This document shows positions 36,178 to 54,773 of a stretch of 59,029 nt of DNA, in pieces. The notes beneath the pieces were generated by a model, which made no database searches, had not been told where the DNA came from, and saw only the letters and a list, made by a program, of their open reading frames with translations. Source of the DNA: a virus (lineage: Duplodnaviria; Caudoviricetes); IMG/VR virus record IMGVR_UViG_3300021963_000146, positions 1 through 59,029 of that record, one strand, 5' to 3'. Numbering within the stretch: the first letter of the stretch is position 1; each line of letters begins with the position of its first letter. Both the position numbers and the translations under genes were made by a program.

Positions 36178-36188
36178 GGAGGCACAAT

Positions 36189-37088: not shown

Positions 37089-37097
37089 GGAGTAGAT

Positions 37098-40000
37098 ATG
37101 GCAAGTGGATTATTTACACTTAAACAAGTAAATCAAGCTGTTCAACAAGGCGGCTGGTCAGGGTATAGTGCCCCTAAATGGGTTGAGTATCTTGTTGTCG
37201 CTGGAGGGGGTGGTGGTGGAACAGAAAATTCTGGTGGGGGCGGTGCAGGTGGTTTATTAACAGGTATTGCTACTGTAACTGCTGGATCTTCTTATACTAT
37301 AACTGTAGGTGCTGGTGGGGTTGGTACATCAACTAGTACTGCAACTGGATCAATAGGTTCAAATTCTGCATTTAATACTATAACTACTTTAGGTGGTGGA
37401 GGTGGTGGTTCCAGATTTTCAACAACTTCAATGTCTGGTGGTTCAGGAGGTGGAGCTGGTCAAAATAATGGAGGTAATTCTTCTTCCCCAAGATATGGTG
37501 GAGAAGGTACTCTTAACCAAGGTAATAGTGGTGGAACATATCTCAGCGATTCTCCAAGATGGGCAGGTGCAGGTGGTGGCGGTGCTGGAACGGCTGGAAC
37601 TGGTAGTACTACTTCAATTGCAGGTAATGGTGGTTCTGGCATATCTTCTAGCATTACTGGAGTAATAAAAACTTATGCAGGGGGTGGAGGCGGTGGTACT
37701 AGAGATGGTCTTATTCCTGGTTATGGTGGAATAGGTGGTGGAGGTACAGGTGCTAGTTCTAGCAGTGCAACTGGATCAAATGGATTAGTAAATACAGGCG
37801 GTGGTGCTGGTGGAGGTGGTCAAGGGTACTCTGGAGGAACAGGTGGTTCTGGTGTTGTTGTAGTTCGTTATCCAGGCAACGTACAATTTTACACTGGCGG
37901 TGCAATTACTTATGCTAACGGCTACATTGTTCACACGTTCGTTGCATCAGGCACATTAGTTCCTACTACACCAACAGTTATCACGACTGACTATCAAATT
38001 AGCCGTTCACTGCGTTTCAATAGCGCTGATTCTACTTATTTAAGTCGTACACCTGCAAGTGCAGGAAATCGTAGAACTTGGACATTAAGTTTTTGGATTA
38101 AGAAAACAGTTAATGGTGCAAGTTATACAAACATTTTTGGTGCAGGAAATAGTGCATCTAATAGGGCAGATATTCTTTGGCATCCAAGTGATTATTTACG
38201 TTATTATGACTATAATAATGCTTATAGTTGGTTTGCAGGAAGTTCCGCAGGAGGTTCTTGGAATCTTTACCGAGATACATCTGCTTGGTATCATATTGTT
38301 ATTGCAGTAGATACTACACAAGTAAATAATGCAGATAGGGTAAAAGGTTATATTAACGGATCATTTGTTCCAAATGGAAGTACTGATACATATACACAAA
38401 ATGCTGAAACAGCAATTAATTCTACGATTGCACATACATTAGGTTCTCATGCTGTATATGGCCAATATATGAATGCATACCTAACAGAAGTAAACTTTAT
38501 TGATGGCCAGCAATTAGCCGCCTCATCATTTGGAGAATTTAATACTAACACAAATGTATGGAAACCTAAATCTTATTCGGGTACATATGGCACTAATGGT
38601 TTTTATCTAAACTTTTCAGACAACTCATCTACAAGCTCAACAGGTATTGGTAAAGATTATTCGGGTAATTCAAATAATTGGACACCTAATAACTTCAGCG
38701 TGACTGCTGGTGTTGGCAATGACTCGGTAGTTGATGTTCCTACAAGCTATGGCACTGATTACGGTTTTGGTGGTACTGTTCGTGGTAACTATGCTACGCT
38801 AAACCCATTAAATGCTGGTAATTCTGCATTTATAACAAATGGCAATTTGGATATGACAGCCAATACAGTTGCTGAATGGAGGAGTGGTGTTAGTACAATT
38901 GCTATGTCTAGTGGGAAATGGTATGCAGAAGTAACTGTAAATAACAATTCAATGGTAGCAGGTATTGCAAAAGCAGATACTAATTTTACTGGAACAACTA
39001 CTTTTGTTGGTGGTAATTCTACTAGTTGGGGCGTATTAGTATCTACTGGTCAAGTATATAACAACTCAGGGATTCAATTTAATAATTTAAGTTATGCTGC
39101 TGGAGATGTAATTGGTTTTGCATTTGATGCAGATATAGGAACAATGACTTGGTATAAAAATGGCGTTGCTGCAGGCAATACTGTAACAAACCTAATATCA
39201 GGACCATATGTTTTTGGATTTTCAGTTTCTAGTAGTGGTTCAGGAAGTATAAATTTTGGCCAACGAGCATGGGCGTACACACCACCTGCTGGATTTAAAG
39301 CACTTTGCACACAAAATTTATCAGCCCCAACAATTGGATCAAGCCCAACAACTTTGGCGACAAATTATTTTAATTCTGTTTTATACACAGGCAATGGCTC
39401 TGCTCGTTCAATTACAGGTGTTGGGTTTCAGCCTGATTTTACTTGGATTAAAGCCAGAAGTGTTGCTTATTCACATCGCCTTGCAGATTCTGTTCGTGGT
39501 GCTGGTAAGGAACTTTATTCAGACGACACAGCCGCTGAGACAACAAATAGTGCAAATGGCTATGTAACATCATTTAACTCAGATGGATTTTCTTTAAGTA
39601 CTGGTATTGGCGTTAATGCTAATACTCAAACATTTGTTGCATGGAACTGGAAAGCCAATGGTTCAGGCTCAACCAACACAGCAGGATCAATTACTTCAAC
39701 AGTAAGTGCAAACTCTACAAGTGGATTTAGTGTGGTAACTTATACAGGCAACGGAACATCAGGTGCTACTGTTGGTCACGGCCTTGGTGTTACTCCGTCA
39801 ATGGTAATTTTAAAATCAAGAAGTGGTGGAACGTACGATTGGCGTGTTTATCATTCTGGGCTTACAGCAGGGTACAACATTGCTCTAAATACAGCTGCGG
39901 TACAATACCAAGGAAGTTCAGGAAATGCAGGTTACATAAGTGCTGTTGCATCTACCACTTACACTTTGACGCAATCAAACGCAAATCTTGATGCGGTTAA

Positions 40001-40385
40001 TGCAAGCGGCTCTACTTATGTCGCCTACTGTTTTGCAGAAGTAACAGGGTATAGCAAGTTTGGCTCTTACACAGGCAATGGTTCTGCTGATGGACCTTTT
40101 GTGTTTTGTGGTTTTAGACCCGCATATTTCTTAGCAAGAAATGCTTCAGGTGGTGGGAACTGGAATCTTTACGATAACACTCGTGGGTCATACAACTTAG
40201 ATACGCCATTTTTAATGCCTAATTCAAGTGCCGCAGAGTACACAGGCGGAATTGATTTGTTTTCCAATGGTGTAAAAATCAGAACAAATGATTCACCAGC
40301 GGGTTCTAATGTTAACCAAAGTGGACAAACTTACATTTTCATGGCATTTGCCGAGTCCCCATTCAAGTATTCTTTAGCGAGGTAA
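37098..40385 (+). CDS. Glycine-rich domain protein, paralog 5, with LamG/SPRY-like and repeated C-terminal domains
   Basis: Gly-rich N-terminus, then SLRFN...TWTLSFW..WYHIV (LamG-like), SGKWYAEV...GDVIGFAFD (SPRY-like), and repeated YTGNG motifs. Confidence 0.7.
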   Translation: MASGLFTLKQVNQAVQQGGWSGYSAPKWVEYLVVAGGGGGGTENSGGGGAGGLLTGIATVTAGSSYTITVGAGGVGTSTSTATGSIGSNSAFNTITTLGGGGGGSRFSTTSMSGGSGGGAGQNNGGNSSSPRYGGEGTLNQGNSGGTYLSDSPRWAGAGGGGAGTAGTGSTTSIAGNGGSGISSSITGVIKTYAGGGGGGTRDGLIPGYGGIGGGGTGASSSSATGSNGLVNTGGGAGGGGQGYSGGTGGSGVVVVRYPGNVQFYTGGAITYANGYIVHTFVASGTLVPTTPTVITTDYQISRSLRFNSADSTYLSRTPASAGNRRTWTLSFWIKKTVNGASYTNIFGAGNSASNRADILWHPSDYLRYYDYNNAYSWFAGSSAGGSWNLYRDTSAWYHIVIAVDTTQVNNADRVKGYINGSFVPNGSTDTYTQNAETAINSTIAHTLGSHAVYGQYMNAYLTEVNFIDGQQLAASSFGEFNTNTNVWKPKSYSGTYGTNGFYLNFSDNSSTSSTGIGKDYSGNSNNWTPNNFSVTAGVGNDSVVDVPTSYGTDYGFGGTVRGNYATLNPLNAGNSAFITNGNLDMTANTVAEWRSGVSTIAMSSGKWYAEVTVNNNSMVAGIAKADTNFTGTTTFVGGNSTSWGVLVSTGQVYNNSGIQFNNLSYAAGDVIGFAFDADIGTMTWYKNGVAAGNTVTNLISGPYVFGFSVSSSGSGSINFGQRAWAYTPPAGFKALCTQNLSAPTIGSSPTTLATNYFNSVLYTGNGSARSITGVGFQPDFTWIKARSVAYSHRLADSVRGAGKELYSDDTAAETTNSANGYVTSFNSDGFSLSTGIGVNANTQTFVAWNWKANGSGSTNTAGSITSTVSANSTSGFSVVTYTGNGTSGATVGHGLGVTPSMVILKSRSGGTYDWRVYHSGLTAGYNIALNTAAVQYQGSSGNAGYISAVASTTYTLTQSNANLDAVNASGSTYVAYCFAEVTGYSKFGSYTGNGSADGPFVFCGFRPAYFLARNASGGGNWNLYDNTRGSYNLDTPFLMPNSSAAEYTGGIDLFSNGVKIRTNDSPAGSNVNQSGQTYIFMAFAESPFKYSLAR

Positions 40386-40388
40386 CTA

Positions 40389-40886
40389 ATGTACGCATTA
40401 ATTTCAAATAATCAAATCACCGAGATAGGTGAATTACAAAAGTTGTTTCCTAATGAAATTCAACCAACTCATTTGTATGCTATTCAACATGGGGCTTTAC
40501 CCATTGTTGATGGTAACAGAGAAGATGAAAGATTTTATTGGGTTACATTCGACAAATATATCATAGAGGCTGACTCTGTTAAACGTAACTACGTTAATAC
40601 ACCAAAAGCTCTTGATGATGTCATTGAAGGTGAAAATACAACTAAAGGTTTAAAGTCACAATACACTACTCAATTTAAACACATAGCTAACTCACTGTTA
40701 GCAAGTACTGATTGGATGGTAATTCGAAAAGCAGAACGTAATGTAGCTATTCCAAATAATGTAGCAACAAAACGTTTAGCGATTCTTAATGAGTGTGACA
40801 GGCTTATTGCAGCAGTAAATTCTGCCCAAGATATGCCAACTTTTATTACAGCAGTTCAATCTGCAAACTGGGGAACAAATGAGTAA
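40389..40886 (+). CDS. Putative tail fibre assembly chaperone-like protein
   Basis: LLASTDWMVIR motif; located among fibre genes. Confidence 0.5.
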   Translation: MYALISNNQITEIGELQKLFPNEIQPTHLYAIQHGALPIVDGNREDERFYWVTFDKYIIEADSVKRNYVNTPKALDDVIEGENTTKGLKSQYTTQFKHIANSLLASTDWMVIRKAERNVAIPNNVATKRLAILNECDRLIAAVNSAQDMPTFITAVQSANWGTNE

Positions 40887-41763
40887 TCAATTAGGTGGTA
40901 TTATATCAGCCACCTATAATCCTCTTGCAGGATCTCCCTCCACTGTTGAATACCTTGTGGTTGCAGGTGGAGGTGGGGGTGGTGGTTATCGTGGAGGTGG
41001 TGGCGGTGCTGGTGGTTTGCTTACTGCTGCTTCTTTTTCTGTTTCTACAGGTTCTGCTTTAACTATAATTGTTGGTTCTGGTGGTGCAGGACAATTAAAT
41101 ACTGGTTATGGAACAAACGGCTCTAATTCAGTATTTAGCTCTATTACCGCAACAGGTGGTGGTGGCGGTTATGGCAATGGTGGTGGCGTTCCAAATGGCG
41201 CTGTAGGTTCAAATGGCGGTTCTGGAGGTGGTGGCGGTGGCAATGCCTCTAGTGCAAATTCTGGTTTTGCAGGTGGTACTGGTGTTTCTGGACAAGGCTA
41301 CGCTGGAGGCGGGTCATATTCCGACAATTCTAATTACACAGGTGCTGGTGGTGGTGGTGGCTCTGGTTCAATTGGAATTACTGCTTCTACTATGAAGTCA
41401 GGTAATGGTGGTACAGGCACTTGTTCAACAATTACTGGTCAACAAGTGTTTTACGCTGGTGGCGGTGGCGGTGGTGCTGATGGTGGTGCATCTGTTGGAT
41501 TGGGTTCTGCTGGCGGTGGTATGGGTTCTAATGCTACTCCGGGAAATGGCACTCCGGCATTAGCAAATAGCGGCTCTGGTGGCGGTGGAGGCGGCGGTTA
41601 TTCGTCAGGAAGTACAGGCGGCAACGGAGGCTCAGGAATCGTAATTATTCGTTATCCTGCTACAGCATCTCTTCCAGTAGCTATTACAGGCAATCCACAA
41701 ATCCGTTATGCAAACGGTTATCAGATATATATTTGGACCTCAAGTGGTTCAGTAACATTTTAA
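40879..41763 (+). CDS. Glycine-rich domain protein, paralog 6
   Basis: VEYLVVAGGGGG ... GGSGIVIIRYP ... SSGSVTF. Confidence 0.75.
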   Translation: MSNQLGGIISATYNPLAGSPSTVEYLVVAGGGGGGGYRGGGGGAGGLLTAASFSVSTGSALTIIVGSGGAGQLNTGYGTNGSNSVFSSITATGGGGGYGNGGGVPNGAVGSNGGSGGGGGGNASSANSGFAGGTGVSGQGYAGGGSYSDNSNYTGAGGGGGSGSIGITASTMKSGNGGTGTCSTITGQQVFYAGGGGGGADGGASVGLGSAGGGMGSNATPGNGTPALANSGSGGGGGGGYSSGSTGGNGGSGIVIIRYPATASLPVAITGNPQIRYANGYQIYIWTSSGSVTF

Positions 41764-41774
41764 GGAAATTAGAT

Positions 41775-42134
41775 ATGGCACATTATGCAAAAGTAACAGA
41801 TGGTAAAGTAACACAAGTAATCGTTGCTGAACCAGATTTTTTCGACACATTTGTAGACTCTAGTCCAGGTCAATGGATTCAAACAAGCTATAATACTCAT
41901 GGTGGTCAGCATCCTGAAGGACGACCATTGCGCAAGAACTATGCAGGAATCGGCTACACTTATGATGCACAACGAGATGCATTTATCCCTCCTAAGCCAT
42001 TCCCATCATGGACGCTTAGTGAAGAAACCTGCTTGTGGTCTGCACCAGTTGCAATGCCTACAGACGATAAGATGTATACATGGGATGAACCAACAACAGC
42101 ATGGGTTGAAGTAACACCACCTACAGGAGCTTAA
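41775..42134 (+). CDS. Phage hypothetical protein associated with glycine-rich fibre clusters
   Basis: MAHYAKV...WIQTSYNT...RKNYAGIGYTYD...AFIPPKPFPSW. Start re-called to ATG 41775 (AAGGA RBS). Confidence 0.65.
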   Translation: MAHYAKVTDGKVTQVIVAEPDFFDTFVDSSPGQWIQTSYNTHGGQHPEGRPLRKNYAGIGYTYDAQRDAFIPPKPFPSWTLSEETCLWSAPVAMPTDDKMYTWDEPTTAWVEVTPPTGA

Positions 42135-42135
42135 T

Positions 42136-43023
42136 ATGCCACAATACTCAGGCATTTGGACGTTAAGTCAGGCAAGCCAAGCTATCAAAGATAACAATTG
42201 GACTGGAATTCCTCCACAGAATGTCGAGTATTTAGTTGTAGCTGGAGGTGGTTCTGGTGGAGGTGCTCCATCTACAGGTTCTAATGGCGCTGGAGGAGGT
42301 GGCGCAGGCGGCTTGCTTGCTGGATTCTCTGGCATTACTGCTGGATCATCAATCACAGTAACTGTAGGCGCTGGTGGAACAGGTACAACCACAGTCGGTG
42401 CAAACGGAAATAACTCTGTATTTGGAAGCATTACCGCAACTGGCGGTGGTAAAGGGGGTTATTCCAATAGTACTGATAGTGGAGTAGGTAGTTCTGGCGG
42501 CTCGGGAGGTGGTGGTTCTTCATACACTTCTAATGGCGCTGGAGGATCAGGAACATCTGGTCAAGGTAATGCAGGTGGAACAGGTAGTTCTACTGGTAGC
42601 GCATACGGTGGGGCTGGTGGAGGTGGTGCAGGGACTATTGGACTAAATGGTTCTGGCAGTAACGCTGGAAATGGCGGTGCTGGAGTTGCATCTTCTATAT
42701 CTGGAGCAGTAACTACTTACGCTGGTGGTGGTGGTGGTGGCTCCTATATAAGTCCCGGTAATACTGGCGCAGGTGGTGTTGGTGGAGGTGGCGCAGGAAA
42801 TCACAACGCTAATGGAACTTCTGGAACAGCCAATACAGGCGGTGGTGGTGGTGGCGTTGGTTTAGGCGCATATAGCGGTGGTAACGGCGGTTCAGGCATT
42901 GTTATTATCCGCTACCCAGACACATTCTCTCCAGCAGTCTCAACCACAGGCTCTCCAACAATAACAACAACAGGTGGCTTCAGGATTTACAAGTGGACTT
43001 CCTCAGGGTCTATAACATTTTAA
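42136..43023 (+). CDS. Glycine-rich domain protein, paralog 7
   Basis: VEYLVVAGGG ... GGSGIVIIRYP ... SSGSITF. Confidence 0.75.
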   Translation: MPQYSGIWTLSQASQAIKDNNWTGIPPQNVEYLVVAGGGSGGGAPSTGSNGAGGGGAGGLLAGFSGITAGSSITVTVGAGGTGTTTVGANGNNSVFGSITATGGGKGGYSNSTDSGVGSSGGSGGGGSSYTSNGAGGSGTSGQGNAGGTGSSTGSAYGGAGGGGAGTIGLNGSGSNAGNGGAGVASSISGAVTTYAGGGGGGSYISPGNTGAGGVGGGGAGNHNANGTSGTANTGGGGGGVGLGAYSGGNGGSGIVIIRYPDTFSPAVSTTGSPTITTTGGFRIYKWTSSGSITF

Positions 43024-43032
43024 GGAACGAAT

Positions 43033-44562
43033 ATGGGATTTTCAAGAAATCTTTCTAAGCTAGCGGATGATGTAGATTCAACAGGAAAGCTATTACCTAC
43101 TGCTGGTGGGTTACCAACTCAAACAAGTCAATCAGGTAAATTTTTAACAACAGATGGCACAAGCCCTACATGGTCTACTGTTGATAGTTTACCCTCACAA
43201 ACTAGTAACTCAGGTAAGTATCTGACAACTAATGGTAGTGCGGCATCTTGGGGTACTATTAGTAATCTCAGTATTAGTGGCATTGTATATCCAGGAGATG
43301 ATACAGCAGCAAACCCTAGTGGTGGTCAAACACTAAACATGACAGGAACAGGTTTCCAAGGTACTCCAACTGTATATGTAGGTGGTACATTAGCTTCCTC
43401 TGTAAGTTTTATTAGTTCTGGTTTATTGACATTTACAGCTCCAGCTAAAACTGCAGGAACTTATGATATCTATGTTGTAAACCCTGGTGGTGCAACTGCA
43501 ATTAGTGTACTTGGAATAAGCTATTCAGGGGTTCCTACTTGGTCAACTGCTGCTGGTAGTCTTGGTACTGCCAATGTTTCCACTAGTTTTAGTACTACCT
43601 TAAGTGCAAGTAGTAATAGCACTGTTACATATTCAATAGTAAGTGGCGCATTGCCAAATGGATTAAGTTTAAATAGTAGTACAGGAGTTATTTCTGGTAC
43701 TACGCCTAGTCCTGATAATACTACTACGTATAGTTTTACTGTTAGAGCTACAGATGCAGAAAATCAGGATACGGATAGAAGTTTTAGTATAGAGATATTT
43801 GTAAATAGTTTTGGCACGTACACGACTACAGATTTGTTTATGCATTATGATTTTTCCAATACTACATCTTATAGTGGTTCTGGATCAACAATAACAGACT
43901 TACAAGGTACTCGAAATGGTACAGTTACTGGAGCAACTTTTGGTGGCACAGGAACAGCTAAATATTTTGATTTTGAAGCGGATAGTATCAACTACATAGC
44001 TTTTGGTTCAACGATACCAAGTGGACAATCTACAAGTGCTTTATCTATGGAGGCATGGATCTTTACAGAGAGTTTAGCTGGTACATATGTCGGTGAAGGT
44101 ATTGGAGCCGTATGGTCTTCTCAAAATGATAGTGGACAATCTGGAGCTAGTATAAACACTGATACTCGTAGCGCACACGGTGGCGGACCTAATGGATGGC
44201 ATCCACAAATTGGCGGAGTAAATGCAAGTTTTGCAACCAATTCGATAAATACTAATACACCTAGCGGAACTGCTAGTGTAAGTAATCGTTGGGATCACGT
44301 TGTAATGGTTTGGAGTAATGGAACTTCAATCGATGTTTATAAAAATGGCACCAACATAAGTACTAATACTACTGGTTGGTCAGCAACAATTAACTGGTCA
44401 AATACGTGGTGGGCGCTTGGAGCGCAACAATCCAATACTGCATCAGGTTCTAGACGTGCTTATGATGGTAAAATTGCTATTGCAAGAATATATAATCGTA
44501 GATTAACTTCCACAGAAATATTAGCTAACTACAACGGTCAAAAGTCAAGGTTTGGTTTATAA
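43033..44562 (+). CDS. Adhesin-like protein (IPT/TIG, Ig-like and LamG/concanavalin-like domains)
   Basis: GGQTL.MTGTGF...YDIYVVNP (TIG), GALPNGLSLNSSTGVISGT (Ig-like), and GKIAIARIYNRRLTSTEI..NYN (LamG). Confidence 0.7.
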   Translation: MGFSRNLSKLADDVDSTGKLLPTAGGLPTQTSQSGKFLTTDGTSPTWSTVDSLPSQTSNSGKYLTTNGSAASWGTISNLSISGIVYPGDDTAANPSGGQTLNMTGTGFQGTPTVYVGGTLASSVSFISSGLLTFTAPAKTAGTYDIYVVNPGGATAISVLGISYSGVPTWSTAAGSLGTANVSTSFSTTLSASSNSTVTYSIVSGALPNGLSLNSSTGVISGTTPSPDNTTTYSFTVRATDAENQDTDRSFSIEIFVNSFGTYTTTDLFMHYDFSNTTSYSGSGSTITDLQGTRNGTVTGATFGGTGTAKYFDFEADSINYIAFGSTIPSGQSTSALSMEAWIFTESLAGTYVGEGIGAVWSSQNDSGQSGASINTDTRSAHGGGPNGWHPQIGGVNASFATNSINTNTPSGTASVSNRWDHVVMVWSNGTSIDVYKNGTNISTNTTGWSATINWSNTWWALGAQQSNTASGSRRAYDGKIAIARIYNRRLTSTEILANYNGQKSRFGL

Positions 44563-44573
44563 TAGTAATAAAT

Positions 44574-44603
44574 GGTCACCCTGTAAAAAGGGTGGCCTTT
44601 TTT
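44574..44603 (+). terminator. Intrinsic terminator ending the structural operon
   Basis: GGTCACCCT-GTAAAA-AGGGTGGCC followed by TTTTTT. Confidence 0.85.
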
Positions 44604-44608
44604 ATCAA

Positions 44609-44681
44609 AAAAGTGAGAAAAATGACGTATCTATAATGAAGAAATATCATTTAGATAGAGTACTCAAAATTAAATAAACTC
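44609..44681 (+). repeat. Direct repeat copy 1; putative class A (early) promoter
   Basis: The 41 nt AAAAGTGAGAAAAATGACGTATCTATAATGAAGAAATATCA are identical to 44878-44918, followed by a shared AGATAGAGTACTCAAA. Confidence 0.8.
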
Positions 44682-44697
44682 TTTAAAAGGTAATATC

Positions 44698-44922
44698 ATG
44701 AGCTATGAAATTGATGTTTTGTTTAACAAAGTATTCGATTCTGAGAAAATGAGAAACTTCGGACATGTGCCACACGAAAGTTTAACCCCACAAGCAGTAC
44801 ACCGCATTACTCGCTCTATGGGTGAATATAAATCTTTTGATGATGTCTGGGCTGAAACATTTGCAAAAAGTTACTTTAAAAGTGAGAAAAATGACGTATC
44901 TATAATGAAGAAATATCAATAA
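44698..44922 (+). CDS. Hypothetical early protein
   Basis: 74 aa with an AAAGGT RBS; its 3' end is encoded by repeat copy 2. Confidence 0.65.
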   Translation: MSYEIDVLFNKVFDSEKMRNFGHVPHESLTPQAVHRITRSMGEYKSFDDVWAETFAKSYFKSEKNDVSIMKKYQ

Positions 44923-44948
44923 AGATAGAGTACTCAAATTAATAACTC
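44878..44948 (+). repeat. Direct repeat copy 2; putative class A (early) promoter
   Basis: Matches copy 1 and is followed by an AAGGAG RBS and ATG 44961. Confidence 0.8.
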
Positions 44949-44960
44949 AAGGAGAGTAAA

Positions 44961-45245
44961 ATGAAAAAGATAGTATTTGCAACAGCGTTAGTATTGCTTT
45001 CTAGCTCAGTGTTTGCTAATAGACCTTTAATGGTTGAAATGGTTAATGCAGAGAGCTATGTTGATAATCTTATAAAGGATGATGTGATTAAAGCCAAAGA
45101 TAGAGCATATTATGTATGTCAAGCTAAAGCTTTACTAAAGGCTGGAGATGATCTTGTAAAAGAGATTGACAATAGTCCTAATCCGCTTAAAACTGTTAAA
45201 CCAATGGATCCTGAAAAAATCATGAAACATTGTAAACACAACTGA
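44961..45245 (+). CDS. Hypothetical secreted protein
   Basis: Sec-type signal peptide MKKIVFATALVLLSSSVFA. Confidence 0.7.
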   Translation: MKKIVFATALVLLSSSVFANRPLMVEMVNAESYVDNLIKDDVIKAKDRAYYVCQAKALLKAGDDLVKEIDNSPNPLKTVKPMDPEKIMKHCKHN

Positions 45246-45287
45246 TGAGTCTTTATTAGACGAAACCGCTGAGAAGCGGTCTTGTGT
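45236..45287 (+). ncRNA. Type I hammerhead ribozyme
   Basis: Stem I ACACAA/TTGTGT, core CTGATGA, stem II GTCT/AGAC, GAAA, stem III CCGCT/AGCGG with a GAGA tetraloop, and a GTC cleavage triplet at 45279-45281. Confidence 0.92.
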
Positions 45288-45313
45288 ATTTCCCTTTAAC
45301 TATGGAGTTTAAA

Positions 45314-45724
45314 ATGAAAAAGTTCTTTATTGTGTTGACTTTGTGTGTAGCAAGCGTTTCTTCTTTTGCAGAGGAAGCCTTCTGTAAGCCAAAGGAGACC
45401 TTGAAGGTTGGTACTTATGGTGCTTTAGCAGGTGCTGCTGCAGCCTTGTTAATCCCTGGAGCTGGTCCTGTTCTTGCTACAAGTATTGTTACAGGTACTT
45501 TGGCAACTACAACAAATGTAGCAGTATGTGCATTTGATGAGAAAGATCGTAAGGATAAGTTAGCCTTGTTCAACGAAGCTAACAAACCTACAGCCTTTGA
45601 AAAAGCTGTTGTTACACCAGTAGAAGATCGTAGCATTAAGGATAAAGCAGTAATTGGCTTAACTTTAGGTTACGCAAAAGCTCACGAAGGTGTTTCTAAA
45701 GTGTACGATAACCTTACTAAATAA
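45314..45724 (+). CDS. Hypothetical secreted/membrane protein with a glycine-zipper-like segment
   Basis: Signal peptide MKKFFIVLTLCVASVSSFA and GALAGAAAALLIPGAG. Start re-called to ATG 45314 (GGAG RBS). Confidence 0.7.
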   Translation: MKKFFIVLTLCVASVSSFAEEAFCKPKETLKVGTYGALAGAAAALLIPGAGPVLATSIVTGTLATTTNVAVCAFDEKDRKDKLALFNEANKPTAFEKAVVTPVEDRSIKDKAVIGLTLGYAKAHEGVSKVYDNLTK

Positions 45725-45732
45725 GAGGATAT

Positions 45733-45828
45733 ATGTTAGAAGAAATTCTTAGCATTGGTTTAGCGGCTATAATTGCAGTAGCTTTGGTAGTTGCGTTGGT
45801 CAATAGCATTACCCTTTTAATTCAATAA
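45733..45828 (+). CDS. 31-aa single-pass membrane peptide (not in the ORF track)
   Basis: GAGG RBS; MLEEILSIGLAAIIAVALVVALVNSITLLIQ. Confidence 0.6.
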   Translation: MLEEILSIGLAAIIAVALVVALVNSITLLIQ

Positions 45829-45837
45829 GGTTTTAAA

Positions 45838-45948
45838 ATGAGAAAGTTTTTTGAATCAGAAACATTTATAAACATTGTAACTGCTATTGCTATTGGTTTA
45901 GGCCTTTGTGCATTAGTGTTACATGGTCTTGATGCTTTAGTTCAATAA
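45838..45948 (+). CDS. 36-aa single-pass membrane peptide (not in the ORF track)
   Basis: TAAGG RBS; MRKFFESETFINIVTAIAIGLGLCALVLHGLDALVQ. Confidence 0.6.
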   Translation: MRKFFESETFINIVTAIAIGLGLCALVLHGLDALVQ

Positions 45949-45957
45949 GGATTTAAA

Positions 45958-46071
45958 ATGATTTATTTTGTATATAACAAAGCCACTGGTAGTTTAATTA
46001 CAACCGTTGCATACATAGAAGACTTAAAACAGTTTAATCCTGAACTTGTAAGTGTAGTAACTTACATGTAA
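45958..46071 (+). CDS. 37-aa small protein (not in the ORF track)
   Basis: TAAGGA RBS; MIYFVYNKATGSLITTVAYIEDLKQFNPELVSVVTYM. Confidence 0.6.
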   Translation: MIYFVYNKATGSLITTVAYIEDLKQFNPELVSVVTYM

Positions 46072-46074
46072 TCC

Positions 46075-46150
46075 TTCTCGGATAGAGAGACCCTCTAGGG
46101 TATGTACTAGACTTTCTCAGCAGAGAGACCTCTTGGGGTAAGTACCAAGT
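46075..46150 (+). ncRNA. Tandem pair of hairpin plus H-type pseudoknot units (unknown structured element)
   Basis: Two units of about 38 nt. Each has a TCTC/GAGA hairpin and an ACC/GGT stem. The second stem is TCTAG/CTAGA in one copy and CTTGG/CCAAG in the other. Confidence 0.6.
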
Positions 46151-46172
46151 TCTTTTAATTTTGGAGTTTAAA

Positions 46173-46418
46173 ATGAGTAAATTTCTTTTGTTAAATCCGT
46201 TGTATGGCGATAACTTTGGTTGTACAGCACAAGAGATAATTGAATCACTAGAAGAATTTGGTCTTACCTACATATTCTCAAATGACACTAAAGGAATACC
46301 AGCAATTTATGCTACAAGTACTTCTAAAGAGTTGATTGAGAGAATGTGCACTGAAGTTGAGCTTGATGGTTCTATCATCGAGTTTACTTCAATCTATGAT
46401 CAAGTGATCGAGGATTAA
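46173..46418 (+). CDS. Hypothetical acidic protein
   Basis: GGAG RBS; start re-called to ATG 46173. Confidence 0.65.
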   Translation: MSKFLLLNPLYGDNFGCTAQEIIESLEEFGLTYIFSNDTKGIPAIYATSTSKELIERMCTEVELDGSIIEFTSIYDQVIED

Positions 46419-46420
46419 TT

Positions 46421-46675
46421 ATGTCTATATTAACTTTAAAGGCGGGTGACTATACTATTGAAGCAATTCAAGATGGTCCCTTTGATTCAGTTAGAGTTAC
46501 TGTCTATGATGATTATCTTCAGACTATAGTTCATCCTTCTTTGTATGATGTTAATTCAGCATACATGGTTGGGGAAACTGTAGCCTCAGTTATTACAGAG
46601 TCTGCGGAAGATTTCCGTAGAATCTTTAAGGCTGTAGAAGATTTAATGCTTGTAGATAAAAAGTTAGGAGTTTAA
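46421..46675 (+). CDS. Hypothetical protein
   Basis: GAGGA RBS; tightly packed with neighbours. Confidence 0.65.
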   Translation: MSILTLKAGDYTIEAIQDGPFDSVRVTVYDDYLQTIVHPSLYDVNSAYMVGETVASVITESAEDFRRIFKAVEDLMLVDKKLGV

Positions 46676-46676
46676 G

Positions 46677-46922
46677 ATGTGTAAAAAATGTCTTTTTAAT
46701 CCATCACCTGTTAATATTTCTGATGAAGAAGGTTATGTGTACCAAGTAGGAAAGGAGATCTACAACTATGTTCGTGCTCGTCATGAACCTCATAGTTTAG
46801 ACTTCTTTAATGCTGTTGGTCAAGAACTGGATCTTTGGAAAGTTAATCCATTAGCAAATTTAAATCAACGATTTAAGAGAATTGGTCATGTCAACACAAT
46901 CAGGAACAGTAAACAAGTCTAA
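46677..46922 (+). CDS. Hypothetical protein
   Basis: AGGAG RBS; N-terminal CxxC. Confidence 0.6.
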   Translation: MCKKCLFNPSPVNISDEEGYVYQVGKEIYNYVRARHEPHSLDFFNAVGQELDLWKVNPLANLNQRFKRIGHVNTIRNSKQV

Positions 46923-47085
46923 GAAATATAACACTTTTCAAATTTTATTTGTTGAGTGGTTTTTGTACTTTGTTATACTAGTATTATTAGATGGTGGTCA
47001 CAACAGTATTGAAGATTCCGCAGGGGGTGCTTTAATGTTGTTGTCTATTATCAGAATTTTTCTATTCTTCAAGAAGACAAAATAA
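46888..47085 (+). CDS. Hypothetical two-pass membrane protein
   Basis: Two hydrophobic segments. Confidence 0.55.
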   Translation: MSTQSGTVNKSKKYNTFQILFVEWFLYFVILVLLDGGHNSIEDSAGGALMLLSIIRIFLFFKKTK

Positions 47086-47089
47086 TACG

Positions 47090-47122
47090 ACTCCCTGCCA
47101 GCGGGAGTATAATCTAGCTGGC
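47090..47122 (+). promoter_or_regulatory. H-type pseudoknot upstream of the RNAP2 operon
   Basis: Stem 1 ACTCCC/GGGAGT, 1-nt loop, stem 2 GCCAGC/GCTGGC, 8-nt loop. Followed by TTTTCTT and an (AAT)n run. Confidence 0.7.
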
Positions 47123-47159
47123 TTTTCTTATCAAAAATAATAATAATAATAAGGACTCT

Positions 47160-47258
47160 ATGAACGTTTGGAAAGCATGCCTAATTGTAGGTTTGGTTTA
47201 TTTAGCAAGAAAAGTTGTAAACCATATGGAGGAAGCTGAAATAGAAATGAAGGAATAA
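47160..47258 (+). CDS. 32-aa peptide (not in the ORF track)
   Basis: AAGGA RBS; MNVWKACLIVGLVYLARKVVNHMEEAEIEMKE. Confidence 0.55.
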   Translation: MNVWKACLIVGLVYLARKVVNHMEEAEIEMKE

Positions 47259-47261
47259 TAG

Positions 47262-49436
47262 ATGGATAATAATATTCTTGATAAATTAGTATTAGACTTA
47301 AATAAGCGACAGTCTGTATTAAGGGCTGATCGTAATATTTATACCCACTATTTAAAAGATATTGATTCTAAACTTTTAGTTGATATATCTTATCCTCATA
47401 TTCTCCGTGGACTAGAACGTAATGGTACTCTCGTAGATATTATTGCTACTATTGGTCGTAGAGTTAGACAATCTTTGGATTTACCTAACGATACAATCTC
47501 TGATGCACAAGTTGGCTGGTTTATTTGTATTGCCTATATTGAATGTAATATATTAAGTTTCAAACTTAAATATACATACAAGAATGGTAAGAAAAGTAAA
47601 TACCAGGCTTACTTCTTCCAGATTAAAGACTGGAAAGCAATTAAAGAACTCTGGGGTTTAATTGATCAAACTAAGGTTGATATATTCCCATTGAGAGAAG
47701 CACCTCAGCCATGGTCAACAGCTTACAACAATTTAGGCGTACCTATTATTAAGAAAGGGCATTCAACAGCTTTAGCTCAATTTAAGGAAGATGATAAGCA
47801 AATGCTTTATGATATCCTGAACAAGCTACAAGCAACCGGATGGAGAATTAATAACGATATTCTTCCTGTCTATAAGTACTTCTTACATAAGAATACTACA
47901 CCTAGCCCATTCAAGATCCACACTGAGATTGATGAAGAGAAAAAGAAATCACTGATTATTGAAGCAGATGCTATTGAGCAGCTTGCTGAGAGTCATAAGG
48001 ATAATGCTTTTTATCATGTATATAACTTTGACTTCCGTGGTCGTGTATATGTGAATACTGCATTTCTTCATGAACAGTCTAGTGATAATGCCAAAGGTTT
48101 ACTCTTACTAGATCAAGCTACACCACTAGGTGAGAATGGTTTGTTCTGGTTAAAAGTTCACACAGCAAACTCTTTCGGAAACGACAAGGTGACGCTAAAG
48201 CAGAGAGCCGAGTTTGTAGATGAAAATATTAATTTGTTTTTATCTTATGCAGAGAAACCAACTATTAATCAAGGTTGGATTGATACTGATGCTCCTTTCT
48301 CTTTCTTAGCCGCTTGTAATGAACTTAGGAAAATTAAAGAATGGCTTATGCAAGGTAATCAGTTAGCAGACTATGAATGTCCTCTACCTGTTTATATTGA
48401 TGGTTCTAATAACGGTGTTCAGCATCTAGTGGCTATGTCGCAAGATGAAGATATTGCACCACTAGTTAACCTAGTACCACAAGAACTTCCTGGTGATGTA
48501 TACATGTATATTGCAAAATATGTATGGCAGAATTTACAGGAATTAGCAGATAAGCTTACTCAAGAAGAGCGAGATCAGTTTGATGAGGTCTATAATACGG
48601 CTAAGTCACTCCAGAAAGCTTACTTTGATGCTCCAGAAAAGACAGAGCAAAAGGCACTAGCCTATGCTGCTGCTCAAGAATGGAGAAATAAGAATCGTGC
48701 TATTAGAGAGAAATTGTTTCCTATTTACTGGCTTAAGATTGATAGCCCTAAAGATCAACGTAAAGTAGTAAAGAGAAACGTTATGACTCTTGGCTATGGC
48801 GGTACAGCCTATGGTATGGGTCAGCAAATCATAGATGATACACGAGATATGTCAGAGTATCTGCGTGATAAAGAACATCTCTGGGGTGCTATGTTGGGTG
48901 ATCTGGTGTTTGAGACTTGTTACGAAAAACTCAAAGGACCAGCTACAATGCTTCGTATGTTTCAAGATCTTGCACAAAGATCTAACAACAAAGATGTATT
49001 CCTTAAGTGGACAACACCTGTAACTAACTTTCCAGTTGTACAGGCATATCGTAAGCCATCTATTGTTCGTACCAAACTAAAGTACGGTGAAGAAGAATTA
49101 AAGATTCAACTTCAAACTTGGGAGGAGGCCACTATTAACAAAGACTCTCAAAAGACAGGTGCTGCACCAAATATCGTGCATAGCTTTGATGCTGCTCACC
49201 TAACAATGACTGTTGTATCTGCACCCTATGAAATGACTGTTGTTCATGATTCCTTTGGCACATTGCCTGGACGTATGGATGATTTGTTTTATAGAGTTAG
49301 AGAACAGTTTGTAGAGTTCTACAAGAGTAAACCTCTGGAAAAATTATTGTCTGAACTTGAATGTGAAGACCTAATTCCAAATAGGGGTAAGCTTGATGTA
49401 GGACAAATTGTGTACTCTGATTATGCTTTTTGTTAA
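47262..49436 (+). CDS. T7-family single-subunit DNA-directed RNA polymerase (RNAP2)
   Basis: DFRGRVY, motif A IDGSNNGVQH, motif B RKVVKRNVMTLGYG, PNIVHSFDAAH, motif C VHDSFG, and C-terminal YAFC. Confidence 0.96.
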   Translation: MDNNILDKLVLDLNKRQSVLRADRNIYTHYLKDIDSKLLVDISYPHILRGLERNGTLVDIIATIGRRVRQSLDLPNDTISDAQVGWFICIAYIECNILSFKLKYTYKNGKKSKYQAYFFQIKDWKAIKELWGLIDQTKVDIFPLREAPQPWSTAYNNLGVPIIKKGHSTALAQFKEDDKQMLYDILNKLQATGWRINNDILPVYKYFLHKNTTPSPFKIHTEIDEEKKKSLIIEADAIEQLAESHKDNAFYHVYNFDFRGRVYVNTAFLHEQSSDNAKGLLLLDQATPLGENGLFWLKVHTANSFGNDKVTLKQRAEFVDENINLFLSYAEKPTINQGWIDTDAPFSFLAACNELRKIKEWLMQGNQLADYECPLPVYIDGSNNGVQHLVAMSQDEDIAPLVNLVPQELPGDVYMYIAKYVWQNLQELADKLTQEERDQFDEVYNTAKSLQKAYFDAPEKTEQKALAYAAAQEWRNKNRAIREKLFPIYWLKIDSPKDQRKVVKRNVMTLGYGGTAYGMGQQIIDDTRDMSEYLRDKEHLWGAMLGDLVFETCYEKLKGPATMLRMFQDLAQRSNNKDVFLKWTTPVTNFPVVQAYRKPSIVRTKLKYGEEELKIQLQTWEEATINKDSQKTGAAPNIVHSFDAAHLTMTVVSAPYEMTVVHDSFGTLPGRMDDLFYRVREQFVEFYKSKPLEKLLSELECEDLIPNRGKLDVGQIVYSDYAFC

Positions 49437-50312: not shown

Positions 50313-50544
50313 ATACACATTAACATTTGAAGAATCTATTAGTGAATTTGAAATGTTACTTATTTGTAGGCTAGGTACAGACTTTTCCTATAACGAAGAT
50401 TTTACATTTTGTACTGTAGAATCTGATCTAACTACTCGTGAGTTTTTAACAGAGATTGCACAACTTACTGATGTAGAGAATATTGGTTTAATTAAACACA
50501 TTATAACACTAGAACCAGACTGGTTAAATTATCACGCACAATGA
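50299..50544 (+). CDS. Hypothetical protein
   Basis: GGAG RBS, GTG start, overlapping neighbours. Confidence 0.55.
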   Translation: MVTSEYTLTFEESISEFEMLLICRLGTDFSYNEDFTFCTVESDLTTREFLTEIAQLTDVENIGLIKHIITLEPDWLNYHAQ

Positions 50545-50840
50545 TTGCATACAAATTATTTCGTAAACGTAAAGATGGTACTTATGGTCCATTATTTATT
50601 AATCGTAAACAGAAGTTAGAAACAGGAGTATGGTATCCCGCTGAAGATCATAAAACAAAAGGTTATGCTCATCGTCCAGGGTGGCATGCTTGTGCTCAAC
50701 CAGTAGCACCTCATCTATCTAAGAAAGATCGTGTATGGTGTAAAGTAATTATCAATGATCTTGTACGTCATCAACGACCTGAATCTCAAGGTGGTTTATG
50801 GTTTACAGCTAATGTATTAAAGATTGTAAAAGAATTATGA
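50541..50840 (+). CDS. Phage hypothetical protein
   Basis: AYKLFR...GYAHRPGWHAC...SQGGLWF; ATGA coupling to neighbours. Confidence 0.65.
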   Translation: MIAYKLFRKRKDGTYGPLFINRKQKLETGVWYPAEDHKTKGYAHRPGWHACAQPVAPHLSKKDRVWCKVIINDLVRHQRPESQGGLWFTANVLKIVKEL

Positions 50841-51250
50841 AACAGAGAACTATTTATCTTGCAGGTCCAATGGAACATGTATCATTAGATGACGCTAAAG
50901 GTTGGAGAGACATAGCTACTAATCATCTTATATTGGCTGATCAGAAAGTATTAGACCCTACACGAAGAGTTCATGACTTCCAACCAAAGTTTATGAAACG
51001 AATCTTTGAGTTAGATTTGAGAGACATCCAAGAAGCTGATTTGCTACTAGTTAATCTAGACAATCCCACAGTAGCTAAACATGGTACTGCAATGGAAGTA
51101 TTCTATGCTTCTTATGTATTACGTAAACCAGTTATTGCATTTAAACAAGATGCATCAACTATCCATCCATTCTTTGAATCATTAGTAACAGAGTGGAGAT
51201 CAACAGTAGATAAAGCATGCGAAACAATTATTACGGAGTACATTGATTAA
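50837..51250 (+). CDS. Nucleoside 2-deoxyribosyltransferase-like protein
   Basis: IYLAGPM ... DL.DIQEAD ... GTAMEVFYA ... KPVI motif set. Confidence 0.75.
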   Translation: MKQRTIYLAGPMEHVSLDDAKGWRDIATNHLILADQKVLDPTRRVHDFQPKFMKRIFELDLRDIQEADLLLVNLDNPTVAKHGTAMEVFYASYVLRKPVIAFKQDASTIHPFFESLVTEWRSTVDKACETIITEYID

Positions 51251-52272: not shown

Positions 52273-54142
52273 TCTAGTATTTGACATCGAAAGTGATGGT
52301 CTACTAGACACCGTAAGCAAAGTCTGGATGATTGTGACTAATGATACTGTAACTGGTGAAGAGTTAATCTTTACTGACTACAATCCACAATATCCAAGCT
52401 TAGCGCAAGGCTTACAATACCTATCGAAAGCAACAAGTTTAATTGGCCATAATATTATTGGTTATGACTTACTTGTTCTCCGAAAACTATACAATTGGGT
52501 TCCTAATAAAGAAACGAAATTATATGATACTATGCTGTTATCACAGGTAGTAGACTATGATCGATTCAACGGGAAACATTCTCTAGCTGTATGGGGTGAG
52601 TACCTTGGGCATAGTAAAGTTGAACATGAAGACTGGAGTCAGTATTCAGAAGACATGCTACATCGGTGTAGAGAAGACGTAAAGATCAACGTAAAAGTCT
52701 TTAAACGACTTAACAAGGAAATTAAAACTCTAACAGAGAAAAAACCTTATTTAAAAAATTCTATTAAGAATGAGCATATTACCGCACAATTTTGTGCTGA
52801 TGCAGAATACGTGGGGTGGCAATTTGATAAAGAATCCGCAACAAACCTTCTTGCTAAGATGGAAGCTCAAATGGCTGAAGTTCAAGCTATCATTGAGCCA
52901 AGGCTTAGTGTTGAAACTAAAGTTATTGATCGAGACCCTAAGCTACCAAAGTGGATTAAGAACGGTAATTATGATGCCGTTACTGCTCGATATTTTAATA
53001 TTGATCCTACTAATGGCAGGGATGTTCGTCTGGTAGAAGGTCCATATCAAAGGTTTGAGTATGTTCAACCTGACTTAGGTAATATTGATTCTGTCAAACT
53101 TTATCTAAAGAAAATTGGTTGGGTGCCAGATGACTGGAACTGGAAGAAGCAAGGAAATGAGTTTATTAAAGTATCTGAAAAGCTAACTACTAGCTCACTT
53201 GAAAAGTTAGGTGATGTTGGTATGCTAATCGATAAGTATTATACAACTCGTTCACGACATTCTATTCTATCAGGATGGATGGAGTCACTAGATGAGAATA
53301 ATCGATTACATGGTAGTTGTTTTACTATCTCTACTCCAACTGGTCGTGCTAGACATAGTGGTATTGTCAATGTTCCAGGTGCTGACTCAGAGTGGGGCGC
53401 TGATATTCGCAAATTATTTGTGGCCAGTCCTGGCTATACAATTATTGGCGCTGATTCTTCTGGTAATCAATTTAGGGCGTTATGCCATTATTTGAAGAAT
53501 GAAGAATATACAAACGAAGTTTTAAATGGAGATGTACATCAGAAGAATGCAGATGTATTAACTGCTGTAATGGCTGAGGAACAGTCTAACTTTCCTAAAA
53601 TCATTAAAGACCCTACTATTTCTCGTAAGTTAGCTAAGCCATTCATTTATGCTTATTTGTTTGGTGCTGGCGGTGAGAAAGTCTCATTGATTCTTACAGG
53701 TGTTCGTAATGCTAAACTAGGCAATAAAATTAAAGCTGAGTTTGCAAAACGTATTCCTGGATTAGCACCACTAATCAAGAGAATTAATGCAGTGTACAAT
53801 CAAACAGAAAACCATGGTAACCCTTGGATTCCTGCATTAGATGGTAGAAAGATACCTTGTGAGTCTGCTCATAAGTCTCTAAACTATCTGCTACAAAGCT
53901 GCGAAGCTATTACATGCAAGGCTGCTACAGCTGTTGCTTATACCCGACTACAACAGGAAGGTATCCCATTCAATCCTTTGATATTTTATCATGACGAGAT
54001 TGAATTTGAAGTTCCACATGAGTATGCTGAAAAAGCTGCTCTAATTGCAAAGGAAGCTTTCCGTGATGCACCTAAGGAGTTTGGTGTAATGATCATGGAT
54101 GGCGAAGCTAAAACAGGTAAAGATTGGTACGATGTCCATTGA
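52265..54142 (+). CDS. DNA polymerase family A with a 3'-5' exonuclease domain
   Basis: FDIESDGL, GHNIIGYD, TGRARH, motif A GADSSGNQFR, motif B RKLAKPFIYAYLFG, motif C HDE. Confidence 0.95.
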   Translation: MSNLVFDIESDGLLDTVSKVWMIVTNDTVTGEELIFTDYNPQYPSLAQGLQYLSKATSLIGHNIIGYDLLVLRKLYNWVPNKETKLYDTMLLSQVVDYDRFNGKHSLAVWGEYLGHSKVEHEDWSQYSEDMLHRCREDVKINVKVFKRLNKEIKTLTEKKPYLKNSIKNEHITAQFCADAEYVGWQFDKESATNLLAKMEAQMAEVQAIIEPRLSVETKVIDRDPKLPKWIKNGNYDAVTARYFNIDPTNGRDVRLVEGPYQRFEYVQPDLGNIDSVKLYLKKIGWVPDDWNWKKQGNEFIKVSEKLTTSSLEKLGDVGMLIDKYYTTRSRHSILSGWMESLDENNRLHGSCFTISTPTGRARHSGIVNVPGADSEWGADIRKLFVASPGYTIIGADSSGNQFRALCHYLKNEEYTNEVLNGDVHQKNADVLTAVMAEEQSNFPKIIKDPTISRKLAKPFIYAYLFGAGGEKVSLILTGVRNAKLGNKIKAEFAKRIPGLAPLIKRINAVYNQTENHGNPWIPALDGRKIPCESAHKSLNYLLQSCEAITCKAATAVAYTRLQQEGIPFNPLIFYHDEIEFEVPHEYAEKAALIAKEAFRDAPKEFGVMIMDGEAKTGKDWYDVH

Positions 54143-54773
54143 ACTAAACGAGAGAATTAAACAAGCGTTTTTAGATCACTTAACTTTAAATGACACTCAC
54201 ATGAAAAAGAAAACTATTGAATCCCAAATGAATTGTGCAAATGCAGTATTAAGAATGTTGCACATGGTTGATCCTGGTTCTTGTATTCTTGGTGGAGCGC
54301 CACGAGACTGGGCATTGGGTAATCCTGCAAAGGATCTTGATGTCTATGTCCAAGGTTATCCTTATGAACCTCGTAATAGTATTTTAAATCGAGTAGCACA
54401 ATCATTAGAGCTTCAGTTAAATGAGATTGAAGATGTAACTAATGATTCCTACTATATGCAGACTAAAGACAATGGTGTATTAGGTGTACTCAATATTAAG
54501 AATTGTGCTATGCCTATTCAAATTGTTATTTGTGATCGAGACCCGATCAGGATGCTAGATACTTTCCATGGTAGTCTTTCAAAGGTATCCTATGTACGTG
54601 GTACGTTCTGGCATTACTTAACAAATAACGATGACTTTGATCTTAGAACTAGTATTGAATTTGATATTAGTAAACAGTTCAAGGTACACCTTATTAAGAA
54701 GTCTGATGATCCAAGATATATCTCTAAGATTCAACAGAAGTATCCAAAGTTTACACCAGTATACGAATCATGA
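54132..54773 (+). CDS. Nucleotidyltransferase (CCA/poly(A) polymerase head-like)
   Basis: ILGGAPRD.......KDLDVYV signature. Start re-called to ATG 54132. Confidence 0.7.
   Translation: MSIELNERIKQAFLDHLTLNDTHMKKKTIESQMNCANAVLRMLHMVDPGSCILGGAPRDWALGNPAKDLDVYVQGYPYEPRNSILNRVAQSLELQLNEIEDVTNDSYYMQTKDNGVLGVLNIKNCAMPIQIVICDRDPIRMLDTFHGSLSKVSYVRGTFWHYLTNNDDFDLRTSIEFDISKQFKVHLIKKSDDPRYISKIQQKYPKFTPVYES

Follow-up and report, generated by a model that had tools for sequence, protein, structure and literature searches.

A conserved two-hairpin RNA element between early genes of uncultivated freshwater phages

The window analysed here is a 59-kb phage record from IMG/VR (59,029 nucleotides, IMGVR_UViG_3300021963_000146), in which all large genes lie on the plus strand. 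It contains, in tandem, two units of a new and strongly conserved two-hairpin RNA element, which is found between early genes of uncultivated freshwater phages. A unit is about 36–46 nt long and consists of a first hairpin, an invariant ACC followed by one or two further linker bases, and a second hairpin. The explanation that we prefer, with a probability of about 0.45, is that this is a dispensable, sequence-specifically recognised element between the cistrons of an early polycistronic mRNA, representing a new RNA family. It would then act as RNA and be read by a protein, with an outcome on the message.

Sequence and structure of the units

Both units lie in the 101-nt spacer between the stop of a 37-aa ORF (46071) and the start of the next gene, here called gene a (46173). 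The initial annotation had described the tandem as TTCTC-loop-GAGAG, ACC, one base, a 5-bp stem, GGTAWGTA and the second strand of that stem, which direct reading of the sequence confirms. Its starts for the two units, 46075 and 46114, are correct, but its ends, 46112 and 46150, are each one base beyond the true ends at 46111 and 46149. The features of this region are as follows.

45958..46071, plus strand: 37-aa ORF, with its stop 3 nt ahead of unit 1; many relatives have a homolog in front of the element
46075..46111, plus strand: unit 1, scoring 51.5 bits with covariance model R2 (E 2.6e-12)
46075-79 and 46085-89, plus strand: unit 1 hairpin 1, TTCTC paired with GAGAG, loop GGATA
46090-92 and 46093, plus strand: unit 1 linker, ACC followed by C
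46094-98 and 46107-111, plus strand: unit 1 hairpin 2, TCTAG paired with CTAGA, loop GGTATGTA at 46099-106
46114..46149, plus strand: unit 2, scoring 55.8 bits with model R2 (E 1.5e-13)
46114-18 and 46123-27, plus strand: unit 2 hairpin 1, TTCTC paired with GAGAG, loop AGCA
46128-30 and 46131, plus strand: unit 2 linker, ACC followed by T
46132-36 and 46145-49, plus strand: unit 2 hairpin 2, CTTGG paired with CCAAG, loop GGTAAGTA at 46137-44
46150..46172, plus strand: T-rich spacer TTCTTTTAATTTT, then GGAG (46163-66), then the ATG of gene a
46173..46418, plus strand: gene a, encoding an acidic protein of 81 aa (pI 4.05); the conserved downstream neighbour of the element, with homologs in nine of nine genomes compared

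Unit 2 has the form that is commonest among units elsewhere, and its minimum-energy structure, when folded alone, is the two-hairpin fold. The minimum-energy fold of the tandem favours pairing across the units; this 11-bp cross-unit fold is impossible in single-copy relatives and is broken in locus L075. Folding energies are not special when compared with shuffled sequences (z 0.27 for 46060–46175, and −0.15 to −1.89 for single units). The pattern GACCN{5,8}GGTAWGTA occurs twice in the window against 0.08 expected, and none of 100 shuffles reaches two. The result for a 22-nt pattern with up to three mismatches is weaker, with two matches against 0.39 expected and six of 100 shuffles reaching two. 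Within the window the repeat is thus modestly beyond chance, and the main evidence is comparative.

The two units had been proposed to form a structured element with compensatory changes, and this is borne out among homologs, where both hairpins covary over 33 distinct units. These 33 units come from 95 matches and were counted in a model-fitted alignment (A6), which leans toward the structure of the model; a MAFFT alignment (A4) misplaced units with long stems and was excluded from counting. Over the whole structure 98.1% of cells are paired against 89.7% in shuffles, with none of 500 shuffles reaching the observed value, and the covariation score is 0.242 against 0.097, with slid controls at 0.039 or below. 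RNAalifold, run de novo on a plain MAFFT alignment of 14 flanked sequences, returns the same two hairpins and no enclosing helix, in agreement with the model-fitted alignment.

The two hairpins differ in how freely they change. The stem of hairpin 1 is fixed as UUCUC/GAGAG or UUCAC/GUGAG; one of its five pairs covaries (pair 4, U-A in 25 units and A-U in eight) and the other four are invariant. Its loop is free in sequence and varies in length from 4 to 14 nt, not in multiples of three, which excludes a coding sequence and a promoter of fixed spacing. In hairpin 2 both sides change in four of five pairs, with 95.2% of cells paired. The stems seen are CTTGG/CCAAG, TCTAG/CTAGA, TCCAG/CTGGA (which replaces the TCTAG/CTAGA of unit 1 in relatives) and a bulged CAGG/CCTG form in which the outer pair switches from GG..CC to AG..CT. 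The 8-nt loop of hairpin 2 reads GGTA, then A, T or G, then G or A, then TA. The sequence directly flanking the element is not conserved.

The initial annotation also suggested an H-type pseudoknot between the ACC of the linker and the GGT of the hairpin-2 loop. The geometry allows this pairing, and the pseudoknot is possible. Both triplets are invariant in 33 of 33 distinct units, so all three pairs are constant. Variants of the ACC were sought in three scans and none was convincing (0 of 30, 0 of 73 and one dubious case of 67 matches); with a loose variable-gap pattern, 11 real units were found among the 120 matches listed, and all have ACC and GGT. The linker lengthens from one to two nucleotides where hairpin 2 is longer, which is compatible with a pseudoknot and does not prove it.

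Two further readings build on this pairing. Hairpin 1 directly followed by A-C-C presumably resembles a tRNA acceptor end with its discriminator base and CC. By analogy, the element might be a new and compact pseudoknotted RNA class in which hairpin 1, the ACC:GGU helix and hairpin 2 are stacked into a helix of about 13 bp, recruiting a tRNA-handling host enzyme such as RNase P to cut the early mRNA, or decoying a defence enzyme that attacks tRNA ends. We regard this as distinctly unlikely; should the pseudoknot or the tRNA-end reading prove correct, a phage would be borrowing an RNA enzyme of its host in a new way. In the second reading the ACC:GGU pseudoknot is the core of a new class of riboswitch or ribozyme, a small RNA that binds a ligand or cleaves itself. 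RNAs of this sort typically combine invariant unpaired bases and an invariant stem with a stem that covaries freely, and the element is compact, intercistronic in phage operons and sometimes tandem. However, known families of ribozymes and riboswitches do not match it, there is no visible conserved expression platform, the terminator-like tail is limited to the tandem group, the pseudoknot is without covariation support and the prior for a new class is low, all of which make this reading most improbable.

That the element belongs to no recognised family, as first noted, agrees with Rfam 15 both at the gathering score and at E<=10. There were no matches at the gathering score in the whole window, and at E<=10 the region 45950–46250 gave two chance matches to snoRNAs (18 and 12.8 bits against gathering scores of 85 and 50). 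A tRNA and tmRNA scan found none, and four 15–16-nt words of the element were not found in the literature text searched.

Several known classes of signal were considered and rejected. The second hairpin of unit 2 with its T-rich tail is terminator-like in the window, but the T-run is not conserved in single-copy relatives and the tail is not T-rich in many relatives, L016, L003 and L001 among them, so an intrinsic terminator was set aside. A promoter for a T7-type RNA polymerase is a conserved sequence of about 20 bp with fixed spacing, present at many sites per genome and matched to its polymerase. The element instead has one or two copies at one locus, variable internal spacing and covarying stems, and the RNA polymerases of its carriers are 25–36% identical, which counts against a polymerase-matched promoter. 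RNase III sites of T7-type early mRNA contain about two turns of double-stranded RNA; the conserved helices here are two of 5 bp only, with no enclosing helix in the RNAalifold analysis, so the element is no canonical RNase III substrate. A mini-ORF, a Shine-Dalgarno mimic and loop-loop kissing each fit some variants and were judged by eye to be unconserved across units.

Distribution and neighbouring genes

The element was sought in IMG/VR with the exact core pattern GAGAGACC-N6-GGTAWGTA. A whole unit is present in 58 of the 63 loci that match, and the other five are chance matches. In a sample that is independent of the motif, consisting of 80 loci picked by the gene a protein (alignment A2), model R2 detects the element in 61, at most 1.2 kb upstream of gene a; it is absent upstream of gene a in 19, one of which (L412) is cut off upstream. 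The 60 distinct contexts comprise 45 with a single copy, eight with a tandem, six with two copies split by one gene and one left unassigned. Genomes have one or two copies, all at one locus.

The core pattern has 71 matches in 185,579 prokaryote species genomes (596 Gb), and none has the full unit. An 18-nt search sequence for hairpin 2 gave five isolated chance matches in the prokaryote genomes, with no arrays and none with an upstream ACC or GAGAG. A DNA search of isolated phages gave no match. On these searches the element is confined to phages within the collections covered.

Roseophage relatives of the window have no copy, and neither do four close relatives (G001–G004, searched as whole records, three of them rated 100% complete). 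At nine loci with 87–90% identical RNA polymerase and intact neighbours, a short unrelated spacer replaces the element. The element is dispensable and its function is not essential, because it is missing in 19 of 80 gene a loci and in these four close relatives. At four element-less loci (L065, L066, L072 and L081, at about 2630–2700) some 50 nt replace the spacer before gene a; read in frame, these could lengthen the N terminus of gene a by 16 codons (MNSNSNRIKELDKGKS-).

Among phages that share proteins at 25–46% identity, higher for a few small proteins, the sequence of the unit is almost unchanged. This near-invariance across distant phages could be due partly to recent exchange between phages rather than to constraint alone.

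The initial annotation listed a decoy for a host defence protein, like a type III antitoxin RNA, among its options. Such an anti-defence RNA would imitate the repeat of a type III antitoxin or of a CRISPR array and thereby sequester a nuclease of the host. The unit size of 36–46 nt resembles such repeats, some phages have the element in tandem, it is dispensable with a patchy distribution, and it lies in the early region among small accessory genes; a mimic would also be expected to have a fixed sequence. The antitoxin-like option does not stand up well, since the element has no counterpart in the prokaryote genomes (a collection that may not include the host), no Rfam match at E<=10 and a single copy in 45 of 60 contexts. 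Neighbouring ORFs have no Pfam hit (no family was found for 45284–45724, 46173–46418, 46421–46675 and 46677–46922), so there is no ToxN-like domain there. We consider a decoy very unlikely.

The element is always intergenic and co-oriented with the flanking genes. The gap between the preceding stop and hairpin 1 is 9–10 nt in 61 of 76 loci and 2–3 nt in nine, which form the tandem group. From the end of the element to the next ATG there are 22–34 nt in 72 of 76 loci, and the sequence that follows the element is A/U-rich.

A homolog of gene a is found just downstream of the element in four of four carrier genomes examined (G009–G012). The protein of gene a was modelled (mean pLDDT 81) as a ferredoxin-like fold of a generic kind. 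No PDB structure matches it at E<=0.001, the best having E 0.015 and a TM of about 0.45, and the model offers no clue to function. PHROG gave nothing above noise for the 11 small early ORFs between 44698 and 47258. A genome comparison was searched for a protein specific to carriers, and none is common to both carrier groups.

The gene order in G011 is 37-aa ORF, element, gene b, element, gene a. The others are element-b-a in G010, element-c-a in G012 and c-element-a in G009, where b and c are distant homologs of one family and gene b encodes a basic protein (pI 8.93). The fuller layout of 37-aa ORF, element, b or c, element and gene a, as found in relatives, is taken to be ancestral. Gene b/c was not found in the window or in G005, the tandem-group genomes examined whole, and the copies are adjacent there. 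Since the copies flank gene b in relatives, the tandem of the window is probably the remnant of two flanking copies left after loss of b/c.

The two copies are unlike in one of their stems in 11 of 11 distinct two-copy arrangements, and paired copies are about 330–360 nt apart when separated by a gene. Unlike copies are expected if every unit must fold independently. Within the tandem group unit 1 has undergone the compensatory change from TCTAG to TCCAG; with b/c gone from the window and G005, this indicates that selection on the unit is independent of b/c.

These arrangements bear on whether the element is a translational operator or leader for the next gene (b/c or a), bound by a phage protein. 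The leader pseudoknot of T4 gene 32, which is bound by gp32, is a system of this kind. The short and regular distance to the next ATG, with its A/U-rich sequence, would suit such a role, as would the 1-nt loop 1 of the proposed pseudoknot, the basic product of gene b and the position of b/c, which are flanked by or adjoin the element. The downstream gene nevertheless varies among carriers (a, b or c), gene a encodes a strongly acidic protein whose modelled fold is generic and has no significant counterpart in the PDB, the ribosome-binding site lies outside the element, and two selected copies persist in the window and G005, genomes from which b/c is missing. An operator is an unlikely explanation.

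Early operon context

The nearest isolated phages to the window are the roseophages DSS3_VP1 and DSS3_PM1 (Naomviridae), with 49.5% identical RNA polymerase. The window also encodes a family-A DNA polymerase and a primase-helicase. The features that bear on transcription are listed below.

1812-6233, plus strand: MuF-RNAP fusion of 1473 aa, with an N-terminal Phage_Mu_F domain and a weak C-terminal RNA_pol domain (Pfam)
44574-44597: strong intrinsic-terminator-like hairpin (nine pairs and a T-run) after the last tail-fibre gene
44609..44668, plus strand: first direct repeat of about 60 nt (AAAAGTGAGAAAAATGACGTATCTATAATGAAGAAATATCA...), with a perfect TATAAT at 44632-37; candidate early promoter
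44878..44937, plus strand: second direct repeat of about 60 nt, with TATAAT at 44901-06; candidate early promoter
47262..49436, plus strand: T7-like single-subunit RNA polymerase (Pfam RNA_pol, E 1.5e-79), 1.1 kb downstream of the element
49501-28 and 50087-106: terminator-like hairpins after the RNA polymerase gene (terminator scan)

The hairpin at 44574–44597 is the border between the late and early blocks, and the element lies about 1.4 kb into the block of small early-type ORFs that starts past it. The direct repeats are likely early promoters. Parts of them are 85–98% identical in L075, L084, L085 and L092, which otherwise share little of 44500–47300, and this conservation seems too high for a plain sigma-70 site. 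With candidate promoters upstream and terminator-like hairpins past the RNA polymerase gene, the region has the predicted layout of a T7-like early operon. RNA-library contigs from two studies contain the element, and one bridges 45838–46198; these are assembled contigs, in which carry-over of DNA is possible, and they document the presence of the sequence in such libraries but carry no information on the starts, ends, strand or level of an RNA. An 83-nt contig that spans the tandem exactly and three contigs that start at 46127 were considered as RNA ends, and are explained by branching of the assembly graph at the variable flanks.

A second repeated intergenic motif, GAGAGCG(A)TCTTGCTCTGT, is present in the same early region of G011 (L181, 7946–7970 and 8231–8250), with a hairpin before each copy. 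It suggests that hairpin elements of several kinds serve to punctuate early messages in these phages.

The early operon also raises the possibility of an RNA that acts on the transcribing RNA polymerase, like HK022 put or lambda nut. The nascent hairpins would bind polymerase or Nus-type factors and cause read-through, for which we think the chances are slight. The later early genes and the phage RNA polymerase gene would be the targets, a proposal of the same slight likelihood. Candidate promoters upstream and terminator-like hairpins downstream (49501–28 and 50087–106) are as expected for antitermination, and so is a pair of neighbouring hairpins whose unpaired bases are fixed. If the target were a conserved component of the host, the identical sequences in distant phages would be accounted for. 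Ten of 14 single-copy sequences have a 5' flank GCTCTT, which we take to resemble the boxA core, but GCTCTT is absent from the window's own units. Antitermination also sits poorly with two copies just 330–360 nt or so apart in one operon, with close relatives that have the same downstream genes and lack the element, and with the stretch between element and RNA polymerase gene, where unit 2 itself is the only terminator-like site on the plus strand.

The MuF-RNAP fusion had led to the suggestion that the tandem forms single-stranded DNA hairpins that serve as its template, as at the promoters of phage N4. The distribution of the two features contradicts this. The fusion is kept at 81–91% identity in the close relatives G001–G004, which have no element; conversely, G009–G012 have the element, only one RNA_pol gene (PF00940) and no MuF-RNAP homolog, and the fusion is absent from this other carrier group. 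With the element absent alongside MuF-RNAP and present without a second RNA polymerase, a MuF-RNAP template is not supported. G009–G012 are a different phage group, which has the replication module and gene a in common with the window at 25–87% identity, together with scattered matches to a few repeat-rich tail-fibre genes.

The broader form of this idea is that the element acts in DNA, as extruded single-strand hairpins that form a virion RNAP promoter or a priming or replication-origin signal. Beyond the presence of the fusion in the window, covariation of the hairpins fits DNA hairpins equally well, and A/T-rich DNA follows the tandem, as at the primary origin of T7. Apart from the mismatch in distribution, the loops of 4–14 and 8 nt differ from those of N4 virion-RNAP promoters, which have a stem of 5–7 bp and a 3-nt loop, and the invariant T·G of hairpin 1 on the coding strand would be C·A on the other. 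Action in DNA is very improbable indeed.

Other features of the window were noted in passing. A basic protein of 99 aa (phrog_12224, 50541–50840) is 70–87% identical across phages, the others being mostly 25–46%, and is the most conserved protein of the shared module. Nucleoside 2-deoxyribosyltransferase-like (50837–51250), dCMP deaminase (55222–55635) and nucleotidyltransferase-like (54099–54773) proteins are also encoded; such nucleotide-metabolism genes, along with kinship to the Naomviridae, hint at modified, possibly dU, DNA. The replication module includes a gene for a SegE-type GIY-YIG endonuclease (56490–56936). The tape-measure protein (11298–17270, 1990 aa) has a Pesticin/lysozyme-like domain. 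Long arrays of 21-nt coding repeats (Ala/Thr-rich) and paralogous glycine-rich genes at 27241–30936 and 31272–43023 probably encode tail fibres; the repeat gene at 27241–30936 and a few genes of 31272–43023 are the only matches to the structural block in the other carrier group. In the part of the Naomviridae paper available (PMC8323127), RNA polymerase, MuF, intergenic regions and terminators are unmentioned, and the sole mention of a promoter concerns an intron.

Proposed function and comparison with known systems

Our preferred reading, a signal between cistrons of the early message, supposes that the element, which lies between the candidate early promoters and the phage RNA polymerase gene, is transcribed in an early polycistronic mRNA. 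There it would act in cis and be recognised by its specific sequence, with a conserved protein of the host or the phage binding or cutting it. In this way it would mark boundaries in the message and so control how stable the transcripts of neighbouring early genes are, or how they are translated.

An RNA-level signal in cis would account for bases that are fixed next to a stem that covaries, for the unchanging orientation and the position between genes, and also for the flanking of a gene cassette, the unlike copies per genome and the dispensability. A stem, linker and loop that are fixed beside a freely covarying stem point to a specific reader, which is most likely a conserved host or phage protein. 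The option of a protein-binding regulator, one of those first put forward for the tandem, therefore remains the best fit, with a protein reader and an outcome that are predictions from sequence.

Support for the element as a new RNA family is good; its carriers are uncultivated freshwater phages, which include relatives of the dU-DNA Naomviridae. Its pattern is unusual, as one stem, a 3-base linker and an 8-base loop are fixed where protein identity is 25–46%, and the other stem covaries freely. It provides a handle on the organisation of early messages in these phages, and its distribution corrects an attractive but wrong link to the virion MuF-RNA polymerase.

Several known systems share features with the element. 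The hairpin promoters of N4 are likewise short and lie in the early region, in a phage with a gene for a virion-type RNA polymerase. Their loop sizes are different, and the element does not co-occur with MuF-RNAP.

Antitoxin RNAs of the ToxI type have a similar unit length and are tandem, like the element in the window, for which a pseudoknot was also proposed. Unlike ToxI, the element has no adjacent ToxN-type gene, Rfam match or host counterpart, and its copies are usually single or separated by a gene.

HK022 put and lambda nut are RNAs that act in cis, with one or two hairpins, in early operons past the early promoters, and they are sequence-specific. The element differs in having no sequence or model match to them and in having two copies within about 350 nt of one operon. 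The first terminator-like sites follow the RNA polymerase gene, and the boxA-like flank is lost in the window.

The RNase III sites of T7 early mRNA (R0.3–R1.3) would be analogous in position and dispensability, and different in structure. They are conserved hairpins that flank the early genes of a polycistronic mRNA, which likewise ends past an RNA polymerase gene; they are individually dispensable and lie a few bases past a stop, ahead of the next ribosome-binding site. A T7 site is one hairpin, about 20 bp long and interrupted by an internal loop, whereas the element has two 5-bp hairpins with fixed loop and linker bases. The T7 sites are cleaved; the element is a candidate cleavage site.

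The REP elements of bacteria are also conserved hairpin repeats of about 35–40 nt, which occur singly or in clusters between cistrons, close behind stops. They are individually dispensable, and they influence mRNA stability and the translation of upstream genes. REP elements are present in hundreds of copies per bacterial genome along with a RAYT transposase, whereas the element described here has one or two copies per phage, at a single locus.
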